A DNA stretch of 10,137 nt from Lachnospiraceae bacterium (lineage in GTDB: Bacteria > Bacillota > Clostridia > Lachnospirales > Lachnospiraceae), in assembly GCA_030527685.1 (NCBI GenBank), contig JAUNAG010000095.1, positions 1 through 10,137 on the forward strand, in the 5' to 3' direction. The notes below the pieces were generated by a model. That model saw nothing but the letters and a program-made list of their open reading frames with translations, had not been told where the DNA came from and searched no databases. The position numbers were made by a program, and so were the translations under genes. Below are positions 293 through 10,001 of this stretch, one piece after another; position 1 is the first letter of the stretch, and every line of letters starts with the position of its first letter.

Positions 293-1300
293 TCACTTCA
301 GACAGCTCCTCAGCTGCGGTATATTCACCAGTGATTCCAGAATACCGTGATTGGATTCTTCCAGATCCAGAGAATCGCCGAAGGCATCCATCAGACTCTG
401 CCGCAGTTCAGAACCTTCTTCAGTGTAAAGATATTGATAGAGTTTCTCGCATACACGGACGATGTTGCGCGTGTACTGCCGGAACATCGGGCTGAGCTCA
501 GAGGCAAGCATACCGAGTCTGGATGCATAGACAGAAGTAGTCGGTTTCAGGAAGGACTCACTGTATTTATGCCACAGGCGTGCATTGGCCGGATTGGAGG
601 CAGTTTCCTGCAGCTCCTGAATCATGGAGTCAATAAAGGCAGCATCTGTTTCCCCGGACAGAGAAGTAATCAGCTGATACCGCTCGGACTGCATGGAAAA
701 CAGCTCGTCAATCTGCTCGGAGCTGAGAGACTGGAAGAACAGCTGCAGCTTCCTGTAAGCTTCATCCGGTTCCTGCAGAGTCAGTCTGTTGATCTTCATC
801 CAGATGAATTCCTGATACTCACTGAACTTTTCGTGAGGAAGGAAAGCAGAAAACAGATAGCGGTTGAGCGCGCCGGAGCTGTAGACGGCAGAAGCATCCT
901 CACCCGTATTCGGTGAAGGCGGTTCCGGAAACTGTGCTTCGAGACAGAGCGTGTAAAGATCAGAAAAATCGGGGTAGAGCGGAAGCTCGTCAATGATGTG
1001 ATTCATGCCGATCAGCGTCTGCGAAATCCGGATCTGCTCCTGACGCAGCCGACGGATGTGCTGGTTTAGATAATGCGTTGCCGTGATCGGCGAGTGAAGC
1101 ATAGAGGAGATACTCGCTACGGACATCCCTGCGTCACGCATCTTTTTGACAAATGTCAGCCGCTCGCAGTCCGCTTCTGTGAATTCATAATATCCGTTTG
1201 CAGCATCAACAGACGGAGAGAGAAGCCCCTCCTGTATATAGAAATGGATATTTCTTTTTGTTAAGCCTGTCTTTTCACTGACCTGTCTGAGTTTCATCAT
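293..1300 (-). CDS. MerR-family transcriptional regulator with a large (~260 aa) C-terminal putative effector-binding domain
   Basis: Long ORF of 335 aa. The N-terminus, MKLRQVSEKTGLTKRNIHFYIQEGLL, matches the MerR helix-turn-helix signature (xxIgEvAkxxGvsxRTLRYYexxGLL pattern). There is a GAAGGGA ribosome-binding site 7–8 nt upstream of ATGATG, shown by the reverse complement of 1301–1312. It is transcribed divergently from the large oxidoreductase gene. The + strand ORFs 250..495 and 347..916 that overlap it are antisense artefacts. Confidence 0.85.
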   Translation of the reverse strand: MMKLRQVSEKTGLTKRNIHFYIQEGLLSPSVDAANGYYEFTEADCERLTFVKKMRDAGMSVASISSMLHSPITATHYLNQHIRRLRQEQIRISQTLIGMNHIIDELPLYPDFSDLYTLCLEAQFPEPPSPNTGEDASAVYSSGALNRYLFSAFLPHEKFSEYQEFIWMKINRLTLQEPDEAYRKLQLFFQSLSSEQIDELFSMQSERYQLITSLSGETDAAFIDSMIQELQETASNPANARLWHKYSESFLKPTTSVYASRLGMLASELSPMFRQYTRNIVRVCEKLYQYLYTEEGSELRQSLMDAFGDSLDLEESNHGILESLVNIPQLRSCLK

Positions 1301-1456
1301 TCATATCCCTTCAGAGATTCCATCTGTACCTGTCGTAGTTTCAGAAAATCCGGCTGCATTAATAATGCTGTTTTTCCGAAACAACTCATAGAAAGTGCTT
1401 TCCTGAGGATTATCTTTTTCGATTCCAGGTATAATTTTTTAAATTCATCTATAGTA

Positions 1457-1470
1457 TACAGTTAACTGTA
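1457..1470. promoter_or_regulatory. Perfect 14-bp palindrome TACAGTTAACTGTA in the merR/reductase intergenic region (candidate operator or merR promoter element)
   Basis: Seen directly: TACAGTT|AACTGTA is a perfect dyad. It sits about 160 bp upstream of merR on the minus strand and about 110 bp upstream of the MerR-type promoter. A TATAAT at 1430–1435 flanks it. I cannot assign it to a known regulator. Confidence 0.3.
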
Positions 1471-1578
1471 CAGAATTTCAGCCGGATAATCGTTTTTGGT
1501 GCAGGAAAAAGCCTGAAAATGCGTTTTGTTCGGCGTTTGCAACGAGCCGGAAGAACGAACTTTGGCAAAATTGCGAGT

Positions 1579-1609: not shown

Positions 1610-1656
1610 GGGGAGGAAGCAAAGAACTTTAATACAGAATGACGAGGACAAGTGAT

Positions 1657-4600
1657 ATGTTTGAACATCTGTTTACCCCTATTAAGATTCGAGGAATGGA
1701 ATTAAGAAACCGCGGCATCATGCCTGCTATGGGAACCAAGTTTTCCGGCAACACAAGCGATGTGACGCCGACACTGATCGAGTACCACAGACTTCGTGCA
1801 AAGGGCGGCAGCGGCCTGAACATCGTAGAGGTCAGCAGCGTGCATACACCGAGTGCACCGAGACATTTCCTGTCCTTAAGCGAAGACCGCTATATTCCGG
1901 GAATGAAGAAGCTGACAGACGCAATCCATGCGGAAGGCGGAAAGGCAGGCGTCCAGCTCTGGCAGGGAAGTCTTGCAGTCGGCCTTGATCAGACAGCACA
2001 GATCCTGATGGCAAGTGAGATGCCGGTAGCTCCGGGCGTCACACTCCCGGGCATGACAGTAGAAGAGATTGAGGAGATCGTCAGATGCTACGGCCAGGCT
2101 GCCGAAAGAGCAGTGAAGGCAGGTTTTGACTGCCTCGAATTCCACTGTGCACACAATTATCTGCCGCATTCCTTCCTCTCGGGCGGCATCAACCACAGAA
2201 CCGATGAATACGGCGGTTCCCTTGAGAACAGAGCAAAGTTCCCGCTGGCATGTATCCGCGAAATTCGTGCTCATATCCCGGAGGATATGCCGCTGTTCAT
2301 GCGAATTGATGCACATGATGATTATCTGGAGAACGGCCTGACAATTGAGGAAGTCATCACCTTCTGCAAGTGGGCAGGCGAAGCAGGTGTGGACGTTCTG
2401 GACGTCTCCCGCGGCAATGTCATCACTCCGGCCAATAAATTCGAGGTTCCGCCGATCGATCTTCCGAGAGGCTTTAATATTCCAAATGCAGCCCGCATCC
2501 GCCGCGAGACCGGCATGCTCACCATCGGTGTCGGACGCATCAACACACCGGAGCTTGCAGAGAAATATCTCGCAGAGGATCAGGTGGACATGGTCGTTCT
2601 CGGACGCGCACAGTACGTTGATCCGGAATTCATGAATAAGGCAAGAGAAGGCCGCACAGAGGATATCGATCACTGTGTAGGCTGTGACCAGGGCTGCCTG
2701 GATGCATTTGCAGATACAAACTGCCCGCAGGTTACCTGCCTGCGTAATCCCGCACTCGGAAGAGAACTGGAATGCAGGATCACAAAGACAGAAAAGCCGG
2801 AAACAGTTCTGATTGCAGGCGGCGGTATTGCGGGACTTGAAGCGGCAATCGTTCTGCAGCAGAGAGGCCACCGCGCTGTGATCTGCGAAGCAGGTGACAA
2901 GCTGGGCGGCCAGTTCCTGACAGCAGGTGAGGCACCGCGCAAGCAGGAGATGAAGGACGAAGTCATCGCGATGGCAAAGAAGGCAGAGCGTCTCGGTGCA
3001 GAAATCCGTCTTCACACCAAAGTTGACGCAGAGCTGATCCGTGAGATGAAGCCGCATACCGTGATGAACGCCATCGGTGCGGTTCCGATCCGTCCGCGTA
3101 TTCCGGGCATTGAGCAGAGCTTTGTTGTCAGCTCCCATGATGTACTGAACGGCCTGACAGAGGTCTCCGGCAAGGTTGTCGTCATCGGCGGCGGTATGGT
3201 TGGCATGGAAGTTGCCGAGTATCTCGCTGAGAGAGGCTGCAGCGTCACAGACCTGGAGATGATGAAGGAATACTGCGCAGATCTGGGCATGGCACGTAAG
3301 TTCTGTGTACAGGAGAGCATCGCAGCTGCAGGAATCGAGTCTGTAACAGAAGTTAAGGTGACCGGTATTGAGCCGGGCAAGGTCGTCGGCGTCAAGGGCG
3401 GAGAGCAGGTTGAGTATCCGTGTGATTATGCAGTTGTAGCCATCGGCTCTGTATCCCGTGACGGCAGAGAGCTGGAGGCAGCTGCAAGAGAAGTCGGTGC
3501 AGGCTACTTCGTCATCGGTGATGCAGGACGCGCAAGACGCGCAATGAATGCAACCAGAGAAGCATTCGACGCAGCATTGACATTTGACGATCCGGCAGTT
3601 CATGCAGATGTGACAAAGCCGCAGAAGGTCGTAGCCGTGACCGGTGCCACAGGTACCATGGGTCTGGAGACACTGAAGCAGCTGCTTGGCAGAAAGAACA
3701 GATTTAAAGTCAGAGCATTTGCAAGAGAATCTGATATCAACAGACAGAAGATGAAGCAGATGGCTGCTCCGAATCTGGAAGTCGTCTGGGGCGATCTGGC
3801 CAATTACGATGATATCAGGCGACTGGTGGACGGCGCCGATTATGTACTTCACATCGGTGCGATGGTTTCACCGGCAGCTGACAAATATCCGGAGAAGACA
3901 CTGTACACGAACATCGGCTCAACCCTGAACATCATCAAGGCAATCAAGGAGCAGCCGGATCCGGACAAGGTGCATTTCGTCTATGTCGGAACAGTGGCAG
4001 AGACGGGCGCAAGAACCTATCCGATTCACTGGGGACGTGTCGGTGATCCGATCAATCCGTCGATTTTCGATTACTATGCACTTTCCAAGGTGTATTCAGA
4101 GCTTGCTGTTTTTGAATCCGGCCTGAAGCACTGGGCATCGATCAGACAGACAGGACAGCATCCGAGTGCGGAAGGAGCAGGCGAGGAGCCGATCATCTTC
4201 CACCAGCCGGCAAACAATGTTCTCGAGTGGAGTACATCCATTGAATCCGGTATCTGCATGGCCAATGTCTGCGAGGAATGGGTTCCGGAATCCTTCTGGA
4301 GAAAAGCTTACAACCTCAGCAGCGGTCCGGCTTACAGACTGACCTGCTGGGAACTGACAGATCTGATGATGGAGCCCTTCGGCATCAGTATCAAGGATCT
4401 CTACGATGCAGACGCACTGCCGTTCTACAATTTCCACGGCCATTACTTCTCCGACAGCCAGAAGCTGGATGACATCCTGCATTTCCGCTGCATTCCGGGC
4501 GAAGCTTACTGGGAAGGCGTTCGCGACGAGATGAGACGCATGAAGGCCAATCCGATGATTGCGGCTATGTTCCCGAGCGCAGAGCAGATGAAGGAACATA

Positions 4601-5127
4601 ACAAGGAGATCGGCATGAAGAAGGGCGGTCTGTACTATGCTCTGGAGAACGGAGACGAGGACTGGATCAAGGCATTCTACGGATCTGCCGAGAAGCGTGC
4701 GGAAATCAAGAGCTGGGATGATGTGGAGCTTTTCCATCCGAGCGAAGAAGAGACTTATCTTGACCACGGCTATGACGAAGAGAAGGGAATCGAAAATCTG
4801 ACACTCGAGGATCTGCAGAAGGCAGCGGCATTCCGCGGCGGCAGATGCCTGATCTCCGCAGTGCCGGCTGATATCTACACCCCGATTCTGTGGGAGTGCG
4901 CCGACAGCCATCAGTTTGCAATGTCTATCAATGCAGTCCTGCAGGGCGGCCACTGGTGCCCGGAGTGCCTGGCACATGAATGGCATTACGGTGACATCGC
5001 AAAGAAGAATCCGTTCTATGCACAGGTCTGGACACCGCTTCACGGTGATGAAGACAACTACGTGATTCCGATGGAATACAGCGGCTTTGATGTGGCAAAC
5101 GAGCTGAAGAACAAGCTTGGTTTATAA
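1657..5127 (+). CDS. Multidomain oxidoreductase: FadH/BaiCD-like NADH:flavin enoate reductase (FMN TIM barrel + 4Fe-4S + two FAD/NAD(P) Rossmann domains) fused to an extended-SDR (NAD-dependent epimerase/3beta-HSD-like) domain and a C-terminal domain of unknown function
   Basis: The ORF track gives 1639..5127. I prefer the ATG at 1657 because GAGGA at 1643–1647 sits 8 nt upstream; the 1639 ATG has its GGAGG 22 nt away. Residues 7–340 carry Old Yellow Enzyme family motifs (HCAHNYLPHSFLSGGINHRTDEYGGSLENRAKFP). Residues 346–367 read CVGCDQGCLD...C...C, matching the FadH-type 4Fe-4S motif CIGCNQAC. Residues 388–425 are VLIAGGGIAGLEAAIVLQQRGHRAVICEAGDKLGGQ, an FAD-binding GxGxxG fold. Residues 512–533 are VVVIGGGMVGMEVAEYLAERG, a second dinucleotide fold. 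Residues 663–820 are VVAVTGATGTMG...YALSK, an extended-SDR Rossmann with a catalytic YxxxK. Residues about 900–1162 have no motif I recognise. The frame is continuous throughout. Confidence 0.85.
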   Translation: MFEHLFTPIKIRGMELRNRGIMPAMGTKFSGNTSDVTPTLIEYHRLRAKGGSGLNIVEVSSVHTPSAPRHFLSLSEDRYIPGMKKLTDAIHAEGGKAGVQLWQGSLAVGLDQTAQILMASEMPVAPGVTLPGMTVEEIEEIVRCYGQAAERAVKAGFDCLEFHCAHNYLPHSFLSGGINHRTDEYGGSLENRAKFPLACIREIRAHIPEDMPLFMRIDAHDDYLENGLTIEEVITFCKWAGEAGVDVLDVSRGNVITPANKFEVPPIDLPRGFNIPNAARIRRETGMLTIGVGRINTPELAEKYLAEDQVDMVVLGRAQYVDPEFMNKAREGRTEDIDHCVGCDQGCLDAFADTNCPQVTCLRNPALGRELECRITKTEKPETVLIAGGGIAGLEAAIVLQQRGHRAVICEAGDKLGGQFLTAGEAPRKQEMKDEVIAMAKKAERLGAEIRLHTKVDAELIREMKPHTVMNAIGAVPIRPRIPGIEQSFVVSSHDVLNGLTEVSGKVVVIGGGMVGMEVAEYLAERGCSVTDLEMMKEYCADLGMARKFCVQESIAAAGIESVTEVKVTGIEPGKVVGVKGGEQVEYPCDYAVVAIGSVSRDGRELEAAAREVGAGYFVIGDAGRARRAMNATREAFDAALTFDDPAVHADVTKPQKVVAVTGATGTMGLETLKQLLGRKNRFKVRAFARESDINRQKMKQMAAPNLEVVWGDLANYDDIRRLVDGADYVLHIGAMVSPAADKYPEKTLYTNIGSTLNIIKAIKEQPDPDKVHFVYVGTVAETGARTYPIHWGRVGDPINPSIFDYYALSKVYSELAVFESGLKHWASIRQTGQHPSAEGAGEEPIIFHQPANNVLEWSTSIESGICMANVCEEWVPESFWRKAYNLSSGPAYRLTCWELTDLMMEPFGISIKDLYDADALPFYNFHGHYFSDSQKLDDILHFRCIPGEAYWEGVRDEMRRMKANPMIAAMFPSAEQMKEHNKEIGMKKGGLYYALENGDEDWIKAFYGSAEKRAEIKSWDDVELFHPSEEETYLDHGYDEEKGIENLTLEDLQKAAAFRGGRCLISAVPADIYTPILWECADSHQFAMSINAVLQGGHWCPECLAHEWHYGDIAKKNPFYAQVWTPLHGDEDNYVIPMEYSGFDVANELKNKLGL

Positions 5128-5144
5128 TACGGAGGGAAAAGAAG

Positions 5145-5888
5145 ATGTTAAAAGATAAGGTTGCAGTCGTAACAGGCGGTACACGCGGAATCGGTTACGC
5201 GATCGTGAAGAAGTATCTGGAAAACGGCGCAAAAGTTGTCCTCTTTGGTTCCAGACCGGAGACAGTCGAGAAGGCAGTACAGTCTCTGAAGGCTGAGAAT
5301 GCAGAGTGGGAAGTCAGTGGTGCAAGCCCGGACCTCGGCAATGCGAAAGCAGTTGCCGAAGAGATCGGAAAGGTAAAGGAGAAGTACGGCAGACTGGATA
5401 TTCTGGTCAATAACGCCGGCGTATCCGACAGCACACTGCTTGCAGATTATCAGGACGGCCAGTTCGAGAAGGTCATGGAACTGAACCTCCTCGGCGTCTA
5501 CCACACCATTCAGCCGGCAGCTTCTGTCATGAAGGAGCAGGGTGGTGGATGCATTATCAACATCAGCTCCATGGTAAGCCGTTTCGGCCAGCCGGGCGGT
5601 GTTGCTTATCCGACCAGCAAGTTCGCAGTCAACGGTCTGACCATCTCCCTTGCACGTGAGCTCGGCCCGGATCAGATCCGCGTCAATGCAGTCGCACCGG
5701 GTGTCACAAAGACCGATATGGTTGCCGCACTTCCGGATGAGGTCATCCAGCCGCTGCTGAACACGATTCCGCTTCGCAGAATCGGCGAGCCGGAGGATAT
5801 TGCAAATGCATGCCTCTTCCTTGCAAGTGATCTGGCAAGCTATGTCTCGGGAGCAGTGCTTTCAGTAGACGGAGCAACACTGGTATAA
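5145..5888 (+). CDS. Classical short-chain dehydrogenase/reductase (FabG/hydroxysteroid dehydrogenase-like, 247 aa)
   Basis: The N-terminal VAVVTGGTRGIG matches the TGxxxGIG cofactor motif. NNAG, the catalytic Ser in ISSMVS and the YPTSK (YxxxK) motif are all present. GGAGGG at 5131–5136 is a ribosome-binding site 8 nt before the ATG. The gene starts 17 nt after the fusion gene's stop, so the two are co-transcribed. Confidence 0.9.
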   Translation: MLKDKVAVVTGGTRGIGYAIVKKYLENGAKVVLFGSRPETVEKAVQSLKAENAEWEVSGASPDLGNAKAVAEEIGKVKEKYGRLDILVNNAGVSDSTLLADYQDGQFEKVMELNLLGVYHTIQPAASVMKEQGGGCIINISSMVSRFGQPGGVAYPTSKFAVNGLTISLARELGPDQIRVNAVAPGVTKTDMVAALPDEVIQPLLNTIPLRRIGEPEDIANACLFLASDLASYVSGAVLSVDGATLV

Positions 5889-5917
5889 AATATTAAAGAA
5901 CAGAAGATATAAGTGGA

Positions 5918-5952
5918 AAGCCGTGTGTCCGGGAGGATACACGGCTTTTTTT
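5918..5952 (+). terminator. Rho-independent terminator downstream of the SDR gene
   Basis: Seen directly: the stem is AAGCCGTGTGTCC / GGATACACGGCTT, 13 bp with one G·U pair, around a GGGA loop. A T7 run follows at 5946–5952. Confidence 0.6.
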
Positions 5953-6026
5953 GACTGCATCTCATTTTACAGAGCATATCATCTTATGCTGAGAGAATGA
6001 TTCAACTGCTGTGAAAGGGGAAAACA

Positions 6027-6629
6027 ATGGGAAATTGCTACGGTTATATACGCGTCAGCTCACATGAACAGAATCCGGATCGACAGCTTGCGGCGATGCA
6101 CGAGCTGCACATTCCGGAGAAAAACATTTATCTGGATAAGGTTTCGGGAAAGGACTTTGACCGGGAGGGCTATAAGAAGCTTTTCAGGAAACTGAAAAAA
6201 GGAGACACACTTTATATCAAGAGTATCGACCGTCTTGGGAGAAACTACAGAGAAATCATCGAACAGTGGCAGCTCCTGACGCGCAAAAAGCAGGTTTACA
6301 TGGTCGTACTGGATATGTCCCTGCTTGATACGCGAAGAGGCGGGGACTTGCTGGATACATTTATCAGTGAACTCGTACTGCAGATTTTATCCTATGTTGC
6401 GGAAAATGAGCGCACACAGATCAGGCAGCGTCAGGAGGAGGGAATCGCGGCTGCAAAAGCAAAAGGAGTCAGATTCGGCAGGCCGCCCAGAGAGACGGGA
6501 GCGGAATTCGCCCATGCATACGCCAGATGGAAGAAAGGGGAAATATCACAGAATGTGGAGGCAAGACAGTGTGGAATGGCGGCATCAACTTTTCGTTATA
6601 AGATCAGGAAAATGCAATTGGAAGAATAA
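6027..6629 (+). CDS. Small serine recombinase (resolvase/invertase family, catalytic domain + C-terminal HTH)
   Basis: The N-terminus YGYIRVSSHEQNPDRQ carries the catalytic-serine signature Y-x-R-V-S-x-x-x-Q of the Tn3/gamma-delta resolvase and Hin/Gin family. Further family motifs are DKVSGK..DREGY, DRLGRN, ILSYVAENER and AKAKGVRFGRP. The C-terminal ~45 aa form a helix-turn-helix. AAAGGGG at 6014–6020 is a ribosome-binding site 6 nt before the ATG. Confidence 0.9.
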   Translation: MGNCYGYIRVSSHEQNPDRQLAAMHELHIPEKNIYLDKVSGKDFDREGYKKLFRKLKKGDTLYIKSIDRLGRNYREIIEQWQLLTRKKQVYMVVLDMSLLDTRRGGDLLDTFISELVLQILSYVAENERTQIRQRQEEGIAAAKAKGVRFGRPPRETGAEFAHAYARWKKGEISQNVEARQCGMAASTFRYKIRKMQLEE

Positions 6630-6805: not shown

Positions 6806-8680
6806 ATGAAATCAATTCGGGGGAATATGGATATGGCTTCTTTTGTCATGGAGTGTCCGAGCTGCGGCAGGTATGTCGAGGCGAAAACAGGCTTTTTTGC
6901 AAGAAAGAAAATTGACTGTACCTGTGGTTATACCATCAATGTTCGCACAGATAAGCTGACCGGCAGAGTGTGTCCGCACTGCGGCAACAACGTGGTTTTT
7001 GATCAGAGCAAGGCGGATCAGGCGAAGTGCCCGGTCTGCAATGAGCCGATCAACACAATGGAAGAACAGAGCAAGGTGGTGGAATTCTCCTGCGGTCAGT
7101 GCGGTGTACGTCTTCGCGCAGCAAAGGGAACAGATACCTATACCTGCCCGGTCTGTGACCATGTGAACAAAGTGGCTGAAAGAGCTGAGCTGGAAGAAGC
7201 AAAAAAGTCCGGTCTGGCAAGCATCATTCGATACGAGGGGGATAATGCGACGCTTGTCTGGAAGCATCCGCTCGAGGATTTCAACATGGGCTCTCAGCTG
7301 ATTGTCCATGAGTCACAGGAGGCGATCTTCTTCCGCGACGGACAGGCATTGGATCTTTTCGGAGCCGGACGATACACACTGGAGACACAGCAGCTGCCAC
7401 TTCTTGAGAAGATTTATCAGCTTCCGACAGACAGTGAGGCGACATTTCACTCGGAGGTTTACTTCATTAACCGTGCCACGCAGATGGGAATCAAGTGGGG
7501 AACGGACAGCAAGGTTCGCCTGTTTGATCCGATCTCCGGACTTCATGTAGAGCTTGGCGCAAGCGGTGAATTTAATATCCGTGTAGAAAATGCAAGGAAG
7601 CTCCTTCTGCGGATTGTCGGCACGACGGGAGGCCTCAGCAGTGAATCTCTCGTGGGAAATCTGAATTCCAAGGGAATCTTCAGAAGTCTGATCATGACCC
7701 AGGTCAAGAGCTTCCTGGCACAGACGATCAAGGAAAATCAGATCAGCGTTCTTGAGATCGATGAACACCTGATGACACTTTCGGCATCTCTTCGGGAGAA
7801 GATCAATCAGAGCCTTGAGGACTATGGTCTTATGATGCCGGAGTTCTTCGTATCCCGTGTCGTGACACCGGATGATGATCCGAACTTCCGAAGAATGAAG
7901 GAGCAGTATGCAAGACAGTATCTCTCTGTCCGGGAGGAGGAGATCCGGAAACGTGAGGCAGAAGCAGCGGCAGAGCGAAAGGCTGTGGAGGCACAGACCG
8001 ATGCCCGCATGCAGATCATTCATGCACAGGGAAGTGCAGAGGCCATGAAGATCCAAAAGCAGGCCGAGGCAGAAGCTTATCGGATGCAGGCAGCTGCAGA
8101 GGCAGCGGAAATGCAGATGAAGGGCTATTCCTATCAGCAGGAGACATCGCGCATGGTTGGCATGGAGGCGATGAAGAACGGACTGACCGGAGAAGGAGGC
8201 AGCGGCATCATCGGAGACCTCGCAGGACTCGGAGCCTCCCTTGGCGTGATGGGCGGTGTCGCCGGAATGGCCAAGGATATGCTCAATCCGGTTGTACAGG
8301 GAGTCGGAGGTGCATTTGCCGCAGGCGCACAGAACGGAGCGTTCGGAGACAGTCAGATGGGACAGTCCTCCCTCGGAAACGGAGTGCCCGGCGCAGCAAC
8401 TCCCGCACACAGTGCACCGGGGGACAGCTGGAACTGCAGCTGCGGTGCGGCAGGAATTACGAGCAAGTTCTGCCCCGAGTGCGGTGCGAAACGTCCCGAA
8501 CCAAAGCTGCCTGCGACCTGGAACTGTCCGAATTGCGGCGCAGCAGGAATTACAAGTAAGTTCTGTCCCGAATGCGGAACCAGAAAGCCGGAGAAGACGA
8601 CATGGTGCTGTCCGAACTGCGGTGCAAAGGAAATTACTAGCCGCTTCTGCCCCGAGTGCGGAACAGCAAAACCGGAATAA
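6806..8680 (+). CDS. Zinc-ribbon / SPFH (Band-7, PF13421-like, YdjI-type) / coiled-coil / triple C-terminal zinc-ribbon protein
   Basis: The true start is probably 6827 or 6833, because GGGGGAA at 6819–6825 is a ribosome-binding site. The N-terminus has three CxxC...CxxC zinc ribbons (CPSCG..CTCG, CPHCG..CPVC, CGQCG..CPVC). Residues about 140–360 match the Band_7_1/SPFH family that is often misannotated as virion core protein, with LVWKHPLEDFNMGSQLIVHESQEAIFFRDGQ...GAGRYTLETQQLPLL...EVYFINRA...IKWGT. An Ala/Glu-rich coiled coil and a Gly-rich linker follow. The C-terminus has three tandem W(N/C)CPNCGA(A/K)(G/E)ITS(K/R)FCPECG repeats. Confidence 0.8.
   Translation: MKSIRGNMDMASFVMECPSCGRYVEAKTGFFARKKIDCTCGYTINVRTDKLTGRVCPHCGNNVVFDQSKADQAKCPVCNEPINTMEEQSKVVEFSCGQCGVRLRAAKGTDTYTCPVCDHVNKVAERAELEEAKKSGLASIIRYEGDNATLVWKHPLEDFNMGSQLIVHESQEAIFFRDGQALDLFGAGRYTLETQQLPLLEKIYQLPTDSEATFHSEVYFINRATQMGIKWGTDSKVRLFDPISGLHVELGASGEFNIRVENARKLLLRIVGTTGGLSSESLVGNLNSKGIFRSLIMTQVKSFLAQTIKENQISVLEIDEHLMTLSASLREKINQSLEDYGLMMPEFFVSRVVTPDDDPNFRRMKEQYARQYLSVREEEIRKREAEAAAERKAVEAQTDARMQIIHAQGSAEAMKIQKQAEAEAYRMQAAAEAAEMQMKGYSYQQETSRMVGMEAMKNGLTGEGGSGIIGDLAGLGASLGVMGGVAGMAKDMLNPVVQGVGGAFAAGAQNGAFGDSQMGQSSLGNGVPGAATPAHSAPGDSWNCSCGAAGITSKFCPECGAKRPEPKLPATWNCPNCGAAGITSKFCPECGTRKPEKTTWCCPNCGAKEITSRFCPECGTAKPE
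8429..8677 (+). repeat. Three tandem in-frame coding repeats (periods 90 and 84 bp) encoding zinc-ribbon modules
   Basis: Seen directly: the units start at 8429, 8519 and 8603 (tggaactgcagctgcggtgcggcaggaattac..., tggaactgtccgaattgcggcgcagcaggaattac..., tggtgctgtccgaactgcggtgcaaaggaaattac...). They share about 75–80% nucleotide identity. All are in frame within CDS 6806..8680. They are not CRISPR: there are no unique spacers. Confidence 0.8.
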
Positions 8681-8716: not shown

Positions 8717-9421
8717 ATGACAGCAAATCAGAAGAGAGCCGCATTGACAGGCGGCATCGTGATGGCCTGCTTCACATTGATCACATTAATCGCCCCACTT
8801 CAGAAAGGAAGCGTCTACATCCTGTCATTCCTGTTCACATGGATCGCGGCATGTGTGGCAGGCTATGGAATCTACAGAGGTTTACTGAACGGCACATCTG
8901 TAAAAAGTAAATATTACGGCTTTCCGATCGCCAGGATCGGTGGCATCTATTTCGTCATTCAGCTTATCCTAAGCATCCTCCTTATGATTACGGCTACATT
9001 TATCGAGATGCCGATGTGGATCGCGGCGATTCTCTACATCGCCCTGCTGGCAGCAACAGGCATCGGCATGATCGGAGCTGTGTCAGTGCGAGAAGAAGTG
9101 GAACGACAGGACAGCGAAGTAAAGAGAAAGACCTCTGTTATCCGGGAACTGCAGAGCATCTCTGCGGGATTTGCAGGATTGACAGATAATCCGGAAGTGA
9201 AAAAGAAATTGCAGAAACTCACAGATGAGCTGCGATTCAGCGATCCGGTGAGCTCTGAGGAAACAGCAGGGATTGAGAATAAGCTGAGAGAAAAGATCGA
9301 GGAGATCCGAACACTTCTGACTACAGGAGAAGCTGACCGGGAAGCAGTGACAGTACTTTGCGAAGAAACAACACGACTGATTGGAGAACGGAATCGAATC
9401 TGCAAGGATGGGAAGAGATAA
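8717..9421 (+). CDS. Membrane protein: four N-terminal transmembrane helices followed by a ~110-aa helical/coiled-coil cytoplasmic domain (hypothetical; possible partner of the SPFH protein)
   Basis: AAGGAG at 8703–8708 is a ribosome-binding site 8 nt before the ATG. Four hydrophobic stretches lie at residues about 10–28, 33–53, 74–96 and 100–122. The C-terminal part is charged and helical (EVKKKLQKLTDELRF...KIEEIRTLL). The gene is 36 nt downstream of the SPFH gene with no terminator between them. Confidence 0.75.
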   Translation: MTANQKRAALTGGIVMACFTLITLIAPLQKGSVYILSFLFTWIAACVAGYGIYRGLLNGTSVKSKYYGFPIARIGGIYFVIQLILSILLMITATFIEMPMWIAAILYIALLAATGIGMIGAVSVREEVERQDSEVKRKTSVIRELQSISAGFAGLTDNPEVKKKLQKLTDELRFSDPVSSEETAGIENKLREKIEEIRTLLTTGEADREAVTVLCEETTRLIGERNRICKDGKR

Positions 9422-9434
9422 GAGGTGAGTCATA

Positions 9435-10001
9435 TTGGCGGAAGCAGATAAAATATGCTTTTTATTTGGAGCAGGAGCAGAAGTAGGATTTGACATCGCC
9501 GGAGGTGGAGATTTTGCAAAGGACGTGCTCGGTATATCGGATGAAGGAAAGGCGATGACCGATGCAATAGCGGAGTATTACAAAAAGGGAAGAAGCTGTT
9601 TAGTTGGAACGGAAACAGATGGATGGTATCCGGTATATACAAGGCAGGGGTGGAAGAGTAATGAGATCAAGAAAGCTGCTGTAATGACAAAGTTTCTTTT
9701 CGAGAAATCAGATGAAATTACGGATTCAAAAAAGAATTTTGAAACAATTATTAAGCGCGAAGTAAAGAATGCTAAGGATAGCGAAATAAAGAAGTATTTA
9801 AGTTATAAGGGGTTGATAGATGCAAATTTTTATACGATGATCGCACCAAAATATCTCGGGCCGACTAAGTTCTGGCAGGTAGTCAATACTTTGAGGAATT
9901 TAATAAAAGATATGGCAGTCATGTTCATATACTGGACTGGGCATTGCACCTTGATGAGTCCACTCCCCATATCCATGAAAGGCATGTCTTTGATGCGGTG
10001 A
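9435..10001 (+). CDS. Hypothetical protein with a TTG start; the N-terminus has a weak SIR2-like motif (ICFLFGAGAEVGF). The 3' ~45 codons are probably spurious read-through into a mob remnant in a different frame
   Basis: A strong ribosome-binding site, AAGAGGTGA (9420–9428), sits 6 nt before TTG at 9435. It is only 13 nt after the membrane-protein stop, so the three genes form an operon. GC content drops from about 55% to roughly 35–45% from here on. FLFGAGA resembles the SIR2_2 N-terminal motif (vlFlGAGxS), and GTETDG loosely resembles TTNYD. From about 9869 a different reading frame carries clear Mob_Pre sequence, so the real C-terminus is uncertain. Confidence 0.4.
   Translation: MAEADKICFLFGAGAEVGFDIAGGGDFAKDVLGISDEGKAMTDAIAEYYKKGRSCLVGTETDGWYPVYTRQGWKSNEIKKAAVMTKFLFEKSDEITDSKKNFETIIKREVKNAKDSEIKKYLSYKGLIDANFYTMIAPKYLGPTKFWQVVNTLRNLIKDMAVMFIYWTGHCTLMSPLPISMKGMSLMR

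Follow-up and report, generated by a model that had tools for sequence, protein, structure and literature searches.

The stretch of DNA analysed here, the 10,137-nucleotide (nt) contig JAUNAG010000095.1 from a Lachnospiraceae bacterium and hereafter called the window, very probably carries a two-gene steroid-reducing operon, with a divergently transcribed MerR-family regulator as its probable controller. The first gene encodes one long polypeptide in which an iron–sulfur (Fe–S) flavoenzyme is followed in frame by an extended short-chain dehydrogenase/reductase (SDR) and which, by its sequence, belongs to a published family of fused 5β-reductases and 3β-hydroxysteroid dehydrogenase (3β-HSDH)/Δ5-4 isomerases; the second gene encodes a classical SDR. 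The architecture of the fusion protein is thus not new. Two observations appear modestly new: the recurrence of a 3α-HSDH-like gene as partner of the fusion, and the absence, throughout the fused clade, of the fourth cysteine of the metal site described for the related enzyme SpiR.

Domain architecture of the fusion protein

An uninterrupted open reading frame (ORF) runs on the forward strand from 1639 to 5127 (1162 amino acids), with its TAA stop codon at 5125-5127. The ATG at 1657 is the likely start, because a GAGGA sequence lies 8 nt upstream of it, the NCBI product of the gene (MDO4620771.1, named 'FAD-dependent oxidoreductase' and derived from a Lachnospiraceae metagenome-assembled genome, MAG) has 1156 amino acids, and the N-termini of homologs (MF-K/H-LF) align with this codon. 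Residue numbers are counted from this ATG, while the positions of the Pfam matches given below refer to the 1162-residue ORF from 1639 and are six higher. The features of the gene, including the binding domains for flavin mononucleotide (FMN) and flavin adenine dinucleotide (FAD), are the following:

1657..5127, + strand: predicted fused Δ4-3-ketosteroid 5β-reductase / 3β-hydroxysteroid dehydrogenase-Δ5-4 isomerase, 1156 amino acids
1669..2661, + strand: Old Yellow Enzyme-type FMN and substrate domain (PF00724), with the H163/H166 pair, the proton donor Y168 and the clade-diagnostic residues N167, S172 and N254
2674..2739, + strand: [4Fe-4S]-binding cysteine motif C340-x2-C343-x3-C347-x13-C361 (motif match, FadH-type pattern)
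2806..3522, + strand: FAD / NAD(P)H-binding domain of the Fe–S flavoenzyme (PF07992, PF00070, PF13450), with GGGIAG at 388-393 and GGGMVG at 511-516
3625..4401, + strand: extended-SDR catalytic core of the 3β-HSDH/Δ5-4 isomerase module, with TGATGTMG at 662-669, YYALSK at 806-811 and the Y807-x3-K811 pair
4402..5124, + strand: C-terminal extension of the same module, comprising a helical subdomain, a zinc-finger-like element and a terminal helix
4891..4968, + strand: putative metal site C1081-x3-H1085 ... C1101-x2-C1104 (WECADSH ... GGHWCPEC), treble-clef / DUF4379-like

Specifically, Pfam matched Oxidored_FMN (PF00724) at residues 11-341 (E 1e-66), Pyr_redox_2 (PF07992) at residues 390-628 (E 3e-25) and Epimerase (PF01370) at residues 665-825 (E 4e-18), together with NAD_binding_10 (PF13460, E 6e-12) and 3Beta_HSD (PF01073, E 3e-11), and all five matches exceed the curated cut-offs. 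An earlier note on this DNA had read the chain as a FadH/BaiCD-type flavin-FeS ene-reductase fused in frame to an extended SDR, and had predicted this set of Pfam families; with PF00724, the four-cysteine motif, PF07992 and PF01370 found on a single chain, both statements are borne out. Within the first half, the active-site segment HCAHNYLPHS occupies residues 163-172 (nt 2143-2172) and SRGN is encoded at nt 2407-2418. The four cysteines of the Fe–S motif (C340, C343, C347 and C361) are invariant in all 53 fusions compared, and their pattern is that of FadH-type Fe–S flavoenzymes; 1PS9 and 6QKG were the best PDB sequence matches.

Membership in a published family of fused 5β-reductases

The author of the earlier note was not aware of a published fusion of this kind. 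However, Arp et al. (Nat Commun, July 2025; bioRxiv preprint, October 2024; PMC12238238) already report it: in 61 of 257 homologs, the 5β-reductase carries at its C-terminus the fused product of a Rossmann-fold gene with remote similarity to PF01073, and two of these fusions were tested. When expressed in E. coli, mf2052 of Mediterraneibacter faecis JCM 15917 and fp1951 of Floccifex porci LKV-178-WT-2G converted pregnenolone to progesterone, 5β-dihydroprogesterone and epipregnanolone (PMC12238238). In Dysosmobacter welbionis the module is a separate protein, dw0523, which carries out both the 3β-HSDH/Δ5-4 isomerase step and 3β-ketoreduction (PMC12238238). Neither Pascal Andreu et al. 2020, on Fe–S flavoenzyme gene clusters, nor the IsmB preprint mentions such fusions.

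Both tested genes were recovered in our genome scan, fp1951 at locus L026 (first 400 amino acids identical) and mf2052 at locus L046 (398 of 399 positions, the sole difference being the GTG start), and over the full length the window protein is 65.8% identical to each of them. Domain order and length (1155-1157 amino acids) are those of the window protein, and the Fe–S cysteines, the flavin and nicotinamide motifs and the Y-x3-K pair of the SDR are held in common; in addition, a MerR-like gene lies upstream at both loci, as in the window. The differences are few. The window protein has N167 and S172, in agreement with the C. innocuum 5β-reductase ci2350, but T takes the place of N167 in mf2052 and of S172 in fp1951; fp1951 is devoid of two putative metal ligands that the window protein retains; and the downstream 3α-HSDH-like SDR of the window is missing from both loci. 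A closer relative, the M18-1 protein (P0006; 80.8% identical to the window protein), is entered in Supplementary Data 1 of PMC12238238 as 'steroid hormone ... Fused with 3β-HSD'. Since the fusion has been published and tested, the window protein is to be regarded as a further member of that family.

The genome of M. faecis provided a side observation. A second fusion paralog ([Ruminococcus] faecis JCM 15917, BBDW01000010.1, locus L056:6053-10327), followed by a 3α-HSDH-like SDR, is present in the draft assembly as five reading-frame pieces, 76-81% identical to the window protein; it represents either a pseudogene or the outcome of indel errors.

Integrity and distribution of the fusion

In a whole-database search, with proteins clustered at 90% identity, more than 120 clusters of 1148-1203 amino acids (nearly all of 1152-1164) matched the window protein at 67-86% identity over 98-100% of the query, and conservation was even across the whole chain, the last 250 residues included. 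When the C-terminal module was used as query against GTDB species representatives, at least 580 stretches matched, and uninterrupted full-length fusions of 1151-1180 amino acids are present at 52 of the 80 loci that were retained. The hosts are mainly Lachnospiraceae (Faecalicatena, Mediterraneibacter, Schaedlerella, Dorea, Coprococcus comes and Eisenbergiella); the others, as labelled, are Erysipelotrichaceae (Floccifex, Holdemanella), Oscillospiraceae/Ruminococcaceae (Faecalibacterium, Gemmiger) and Anaerovoracaceae. Isolates with a continuous fusion are found among them, namely Floccifex porci, Faecalicatena contorta, Eisenbergiella tayi, Coprococcus comes and M18-1.

These data bear on the possibility that the single ORF arose by an assembly error or frameshift joining two separate genes. 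The window comes from a MAG and spans a contig of 10 kb, the 5β-reductase and the 3β-HSDH/isomerase are encoded by separate genes in some species such as D. welbionis (PMC12238238), and stand-alone modules were met at loci L062-L084 of the genome scan. Nevertheless, we give this explanation practically no weight: a continuous protein of about 1155 amino acids is present in the more than 120 independent clusters and in the 52 species-level genomes, isolates included, and two such genes have been cloned and expressed as fusions (PMC12238238). The comparative data thereby rule out an artefact and uphold the ORF as first described.

The N-terminal half belongs to the steroid-hormone clade

By its residues, its identities and its gene context, the N-terminal half is placed in the steroid-hormone 5β-reductase clade and not with BaiCD proper. 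Over its first 400 residues the window protein is 72.5% identical to mf2052, 70.4% to fp1951 and 62.7% to ci2350, versus 47.2% to BaiCD of Clostridium scindens and 31.4% to BaiH. Mutagenesis of ci2350 identified N166 and S171 as the residues by which the steroid-hormone clade is told apart; enzymes of the bile-acid clade have S or Y at the first of these positions and E at the second (PMC12238238). In the window protein, N167, Y168, S172 and N254 match N166, Y167, S171 and N253 of ci2350, and the active-site segment reads HCAHNYLPHS as against HAAHSYLPHE in BaiCD, the S and E being present in both the C. scindens and the Proteocatella enzymes. Among the 53 fusions, residue 167 is N in 47 and T in 6, residue 172 is S in 52 and T in 1, and Y168 and N254 are invariant. 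As for the context, baiB, E, F, G, H and I were all missing from the window and from four annotated related loci (L001-L004); the neighbours of the fusion gene in the window are genes for a MerR regulator, an SDR, an invertase and an SPFH protein.

The same half scores 1053.6 bits, against a cut-off of 825, with the NCBIfam BaiCD equivalog NF041087 (residues 2-642, or 8-648 in the numbering from 1639), and UniRef labels one homolog (P0062) as BaiCD. A protein that is 47% identical to BaiCD and carries the residues of the steroid clade thus passes this model, and therefore automatic annotation names members of the clade BaiCD; NF041087 appears over-inclusive for the fusions.

If the N-terminal half were a true BaiCD, the two genes might form a compact bile-acid module, in which 3-oxo-Δ4 intermediates are reduced and a BaiA-like SDR acts on the 3α-hydroxyl. 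The NF041087 score and the UniRef name speak for this, as do the position of BaiA2 as the nearest solved relative of the downstream SDR and some overlapping promiscuity between C. scindens BaiCD and ci2350 (PMC12238238). We judge such a module very improbable, given the 47% identity to C. scindens BaiCD versus 63-72% to the steroid-clade enzymes, the diagnostic N167 and S172 and the missing bai genes. Furthermore, the 81%-identical M18-1 protein was classed as 'steroid hormone' (PMC12238238), and OsrB, a separately characterised steroid 5β-reductase, had activity below detection on bile-acid analogues (OsrB study). Despite the NF041087 match, a true BaiCD is therefore rejected on identity, diagnostic residues and gene context. 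Of the earlier assignment, the Fe–S flavoenzyme class stands and the attribution to BaiCD proper is to be replaced by the steroid-hormone clade.

Compared with the characterised enzymes, the window protein has its N-terminal half in the same Fe–S flavoenzyme class as ci2350 of Clostridium innocuum and OsrB of Clostridium steroidireducens. These two proteins are about 640 amino acids long and have no SDR module, their partners (the C. innocuum 3β-HSDH and OsrC, respectively) being separate proteins, whereas in the window both activities are predicted on one chain. C. scindens BaiCD has in common with the window protein the Fe–S flavoenzyme fold and, as predicted here, the 5β reduction of a 3-oxo-Δ4 nucleus, but it is set in the bai operon, while the window protein is without bai context and carries an extra C-terminal module of 500 amino acids.

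The C-terminal module and its putative metal site

The C-terminal module folds as an extended SDR; a PDB sequence search with this half of the protein matched the Rossmann part alone (E 3e-9). Its last residues, about 260 of them, had at first been considered of unknown function. They recur in stand-alone homologs of about 500 amino acids from Acutalibacteraceae and Oscillospiraceae, which are 44-47% identical and cover the whole module, tail included. On this comparison, the C-terminal 240-260 residues are a conserved part of the 3β-HSDH/isomerase (SpiR-type) family and no independent add-on.

SpiR of Eubacterium coprostanoligenes has been described as a 520-residue cholesterol Δ5-4 isomerase/3-keto reductase with 'an additional C-terminal domain', a catalytic triad that includes T126, and four conserved cysteines read as a rubredoxin-like Fe(Cys)4 site (PMC13079761). 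Likened to it and to dw0523 by description, the module of the window protein differs in being fused where those two 3β-HSDH/Δ5-4 isomerase/3-keto reductases stand alone; it has TGATGTMG, Y807 and K811 and a homologous tail where SpiR has the SDR triad and an extra metal-type domain. The metal site itself is reported as Cys4 for SpiR and is Cys3His in the window protein and the fused clade. Specifically, the stand-alone homologs retrieved mostly read WKCACGH...GHWCPEC, while in all 53 species-level fusions D, F, S, E or Q stands at the second cysteine of this pattern, and this residue was never Cys in 120 metagenomic clusters. In addition, C1081 and H1085 are both lost in 4 of the 53 fusions, among them fp1951, whose activity has been shown by experiment. 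The site of the fused clade therefore looks like a structural, partly dispensable Cys3His site, a pattern that argues against an essential rubredoxin-like Fe(Cys)4 centre.

Family assignment of the tail element gave weak matches, to PF14311 (E 0.0011, under the Pfam cut-off) and to DUF4379 proteins in the PDB. As a side observation, the zinc-finger-like unit of this tail, about 60 amino acids long (module residues ~395-458), is repeated in tandem, with as many as 16 matched stretches, in proteins of about 440-1630 amino acids that are otherwise unrelated (P0156, P0161, P0170 and others), presumably DUF4379-type repeat proteins.

A 3α-HSDH-like SDR completes the operon

Immediately downstream of the fusion gene, two further features were mapped:

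5145..5888, + strand: classical SDR, predicted 3α-hydroxysteroid dehydrogenase, 247 amino acids (MDO4620772.1), 17 nt downstream of the fusion gene
5912..5953, + strand: intrinsic terminator ending the two-gene operon, consisting of a hairpin and a subsequent tract of 7 U (ΔG -26.8 kcal/mol, z -6.5 versus shuffled sequences)

The fusion gene and the SDR gene form one operon, because a ribosome-binding sequence (GGAGGG, 8 nt upstream of the SDR start codon) is contained in the 17-nt gap and a strong terminator follows the SDR. This terminator was missed by the promoter scan described below but was confirmed by folding.

The SDR matches PF00106 and PF13561, both with E of about 1e-60, and contains the motifs TGGTRGIG and NNAG, the serine of ISSMVS (140-145) and Y155-x3-K159. 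Among NCBIfam models, generic SDR or FabG names alone scored above cut-off. In the PDB, the best match is the 3α-HSDH BaiA2 of C. scindens (4IS2; 217 bits, 45% identity, ungapped), followed by a FabG with 178 bits. The sequence FGSR occupies residues 34-37, after β2, where BaiA2 has FGET. A Ser-Arg pair at this point, as against the Glu-Thr of BaiA2, is a pointer to NADP(H) in SDR enzymes generally, so that the window SDR is probably NADP(H)-dependent.

The gene for the 3α-HSDH of Ruminococcus gnavus was located by an exact DNA search with its published forward primer (Supplementary Data 5, PMC12238238). The gene was thereby found on 34 metagenome contigs, mostly with a human gut label, and the encoded product of 250 amino acids ends in GAARS, as the reverse primer demands. 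The window SDR is 62.8% identical to this product, without internal gaps. Moreover, a copy of this SDR follows the fusion gene at a distance of 10-59 nt in 8 other species-level loci, that is, in 9 of 57 loci with the window, and the identity of these copies is 57-77% with the window SDR and 60-69% with the R. gnavus 3α-HSDH. Both the R. gnavus 3α-HSDH and BaiA2 share the classical SDR motifs of the window SDR. The two enzymes, the former attributed to Devlin and Fischbach 2015, were reportedly characterised on bile acids or bile-acid CoA esters. All together, these comparisons indicate that the second gene most likely encodes a 3α-HSDH. The earlier description of a FabG/HSDH-like SDR 17 nt downstream was right as to position and to the classical SDR type, but a FabG-like function is not favoured, the nearest characterised relatives being 3α-HSDHs.

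In the main text of PMC12238238, Fig. 3b apart, the terms 'SDR', 'short-chain' and 'FabG' have no occurrence, and 3α-HSDH is named in the pathway outline and the cloning list only. The linkage between the fusion and the SDR may therefore be unreported.

Upstream regulator and flanking region

Upstream of the operon, the following features were found:

293..1300, - strand: MerR-family regulator, 335 amino acids, with an N-terminal helix-turn-helix (PF13411 MerR_1, residues 2-69, E 7e-18) and a C-terminal region of about 230 amino acids, divergent from the fusion gene
1453..1490, both strands: overlapping divergent sigma-70-like promoter matches, TTAACT-17-GATAAT on the + strand (1462-1490) and CTGAAA-17-TATACT on the - strand (1481-1453), by consensus match only

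The MerR gene and the fusion gene are separated by an intergenic region of 356 nt, and no inverted repeats of 10 nt or more were found in 1290-1660. The C-terminal region of about 230 amino acids gave no match in Pfam or in PDB sequences, and a PDB profile search of the protein matched the helix-turn-helix and a coiled coil only. A word-based search returned 9 homologs of the regulator, and several aromatic residues are invariant in the C-terminal region. About 35 of the 57 fusion loci have a divergent MerR-like gene upstream, with 23-43% identity to the MerR protein of the window, and MerR, AraC and AcrR regulators have been noted to adjoin 5β-reductase genes (PMC12238238). We therefore infer that the MerR protein is a candidate regulator of the operon and a possible ligand sensor; given its recurrence, its C-terminal region could be a steroid-sensing domain without a recognisable family.

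On the other side of the operon, the remainder of the window contains:

6027-6629: serine DNA invertase/resolvase, directly after the operon terminator
6806-8680: SPFH/Band-7 protein of 624 amino acids, with C-terminal double zinc ribbons
8717-9421 and 9435-10001: two ORFs without family match

The G+C content drops to 0.40 at the end of the window. PADLOC gave no significant defence match for the four downstream ORFs (best E 0.002), and the DNA invertase was the only match when PADLOC and PHROGs were run on them. The segment 6027-10001 may mark the border of a mobile or variable region.

Elsewhere the surroundings of the fusion gene vary. In M18-1 (locus L001:1-13471, KE159609.1) it is the last gene after an AraC regulator, two GH3 glycosidases, two MFS_2 glycoside transporters and a GDSL esterase; in another annotated relative it lies between unrelated genes, with the SDR kept.

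Proposed reaction sequence and its alternatives

The reaction sequence set out here, with its substrates and stereochemistry, is one that we infer from characterised homologs, at 63-66% identity. First, the C-terminal SDR module would turn 3β-hydroxy-Δ5 steroids (for example pregnenolone) into 3-oxo-Δ4 steroids (for example progesterone) by oxidation and isomerisation. In the N-terminal Fe–S flavoenzyme, electrons would travel from the FAD/NAD(P)H domain to FMN by way of the [4Fe-4S] cluster, and the C4=C5 bond would be reduced, with Y168 as proton donor, to give a 5β-dihydrosteroid. The SDR module may then reduce the 3-ketone to the 3β-alcohol, for example epipregnanolone. Finally, the product of the second gene could convert the 5β-dihydro-3-ketone to 3α,5β products (for example pregnanolone or 3α,5β-tetrahydro-corticoids), or it could change 3β and 3α epimers into one another. 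The idea of the earlier note that C=C and C=O bonds of 3-oxo-Δ4 steroids are reduced consecutively thus gains support from the 66%-identical homologs, but the view of the fused SDR merely as a ketone reductase does not, since the homologs also oxidise and isomerise the 3β-hydroxy-Δ5 substrate beforehand.

Several points weigh against this reading of the operon. The tested enzymes share only 66% identity with the window protein and were assayed in E. coli cells on a few progestogens, and substrate range could differ between members of the family. The physiological electron donor of the enzyme class is unsettled, the OsrB study having left it without identity. As regards the second gene, the SDR is absent from most of the 57 fusion loci, mf2052 and fp1951 included; the R. 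gnavus 3α-HSDH gene does not adjoin a 5β-reductase gene; and the role proposed for the SDR draws on homology to 3α-HSDHs of bile acids. Regulation by the MerR protein is deduced only from its position, and the promoter scan gave 5 matches versus 3.7 expected in shuffled sequence, which is chance level. In addition, the glycosidase, transporter and esterase cluster of M18-1 hints at other or conjugated (glycosylated, esterified) substrates in that strain.

The last point leads to a different view of the substrates, in which the native Lachnospiraceae substrates would not be host steroid hormones but other sterol-like 3-hydroxy-Δ5 or 3-oxo-Δ4 compounds (for example dietary steroidal glycoside aglycones, cardenolides or saponins, or cholesterol and plant sterols), the activity on progestogens being promiscuous. 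The M18-1 fusion gene does end a cluster with GH3, MFS_2, GDSL esterase and AraC genes, the stand-alone relative SpiR prefers cholesterol (PMC13079761), and only a few substrates have been tried on the fusions (PMC12238238). However, the glycosidase context is seen in 1 of 4 annotated loci, the others having MerR or no conserved partner, and both ci2350 and OsrB accept many steroid hormones, with a minor activity of OsrB on cholesterol (OsrB study; IsmB preprint on promiscuity). We consider the sterol explanation unlikely and retain steroid hormones as the probable substrates of the operon.

A more far-reaching proposal can be put forward only tentatively, and we hold it with more doubt than conviction. 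The operon would be a complete, self-contained neurosteroid-type cassette, in which the fusion provides the 3β-HSDH/isomerase, 5β-reductase and 3β-ketoreductase activities and the co-transcribed SDR redirects or epimerises the products to 3α,5β-steroids; at the same time, the metal site of the fusion would bind zinc through Cys3His in a structural and dispensable role, instead of serving as a rubredoxin-like redox centre. If true, such a cassette would explain why some gut strains make 3α,5β instead of 3β,5β products.

Implications for the family

Reduction of progestogens, androgens and corticosteroids by gut bacteria alters the availability of hormones and drugs, and bacterial steroid reduction in the gut yields neuroactive 5β-pregnanolone isomers. 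Because the fused enzymes are among the few with a defined genetic basis, further members of the family help the annotation of metagenomes, where automatic names such as BaiCD or 'FAD-dependent oxidoreductase' are misleading for this clade. The absence of the fourth cysteine from the fused clade, and of two more ligands from one active member, bears on the role of the SpiR-type site. In addition, 3α,5β products have been reported for some strains (OsrB study), and the 3α-HSDH-like gene that is paired with the fusion in 9 of 57 loci is, by its sequence relationships, a candidate source of these otherwise unexplained products.

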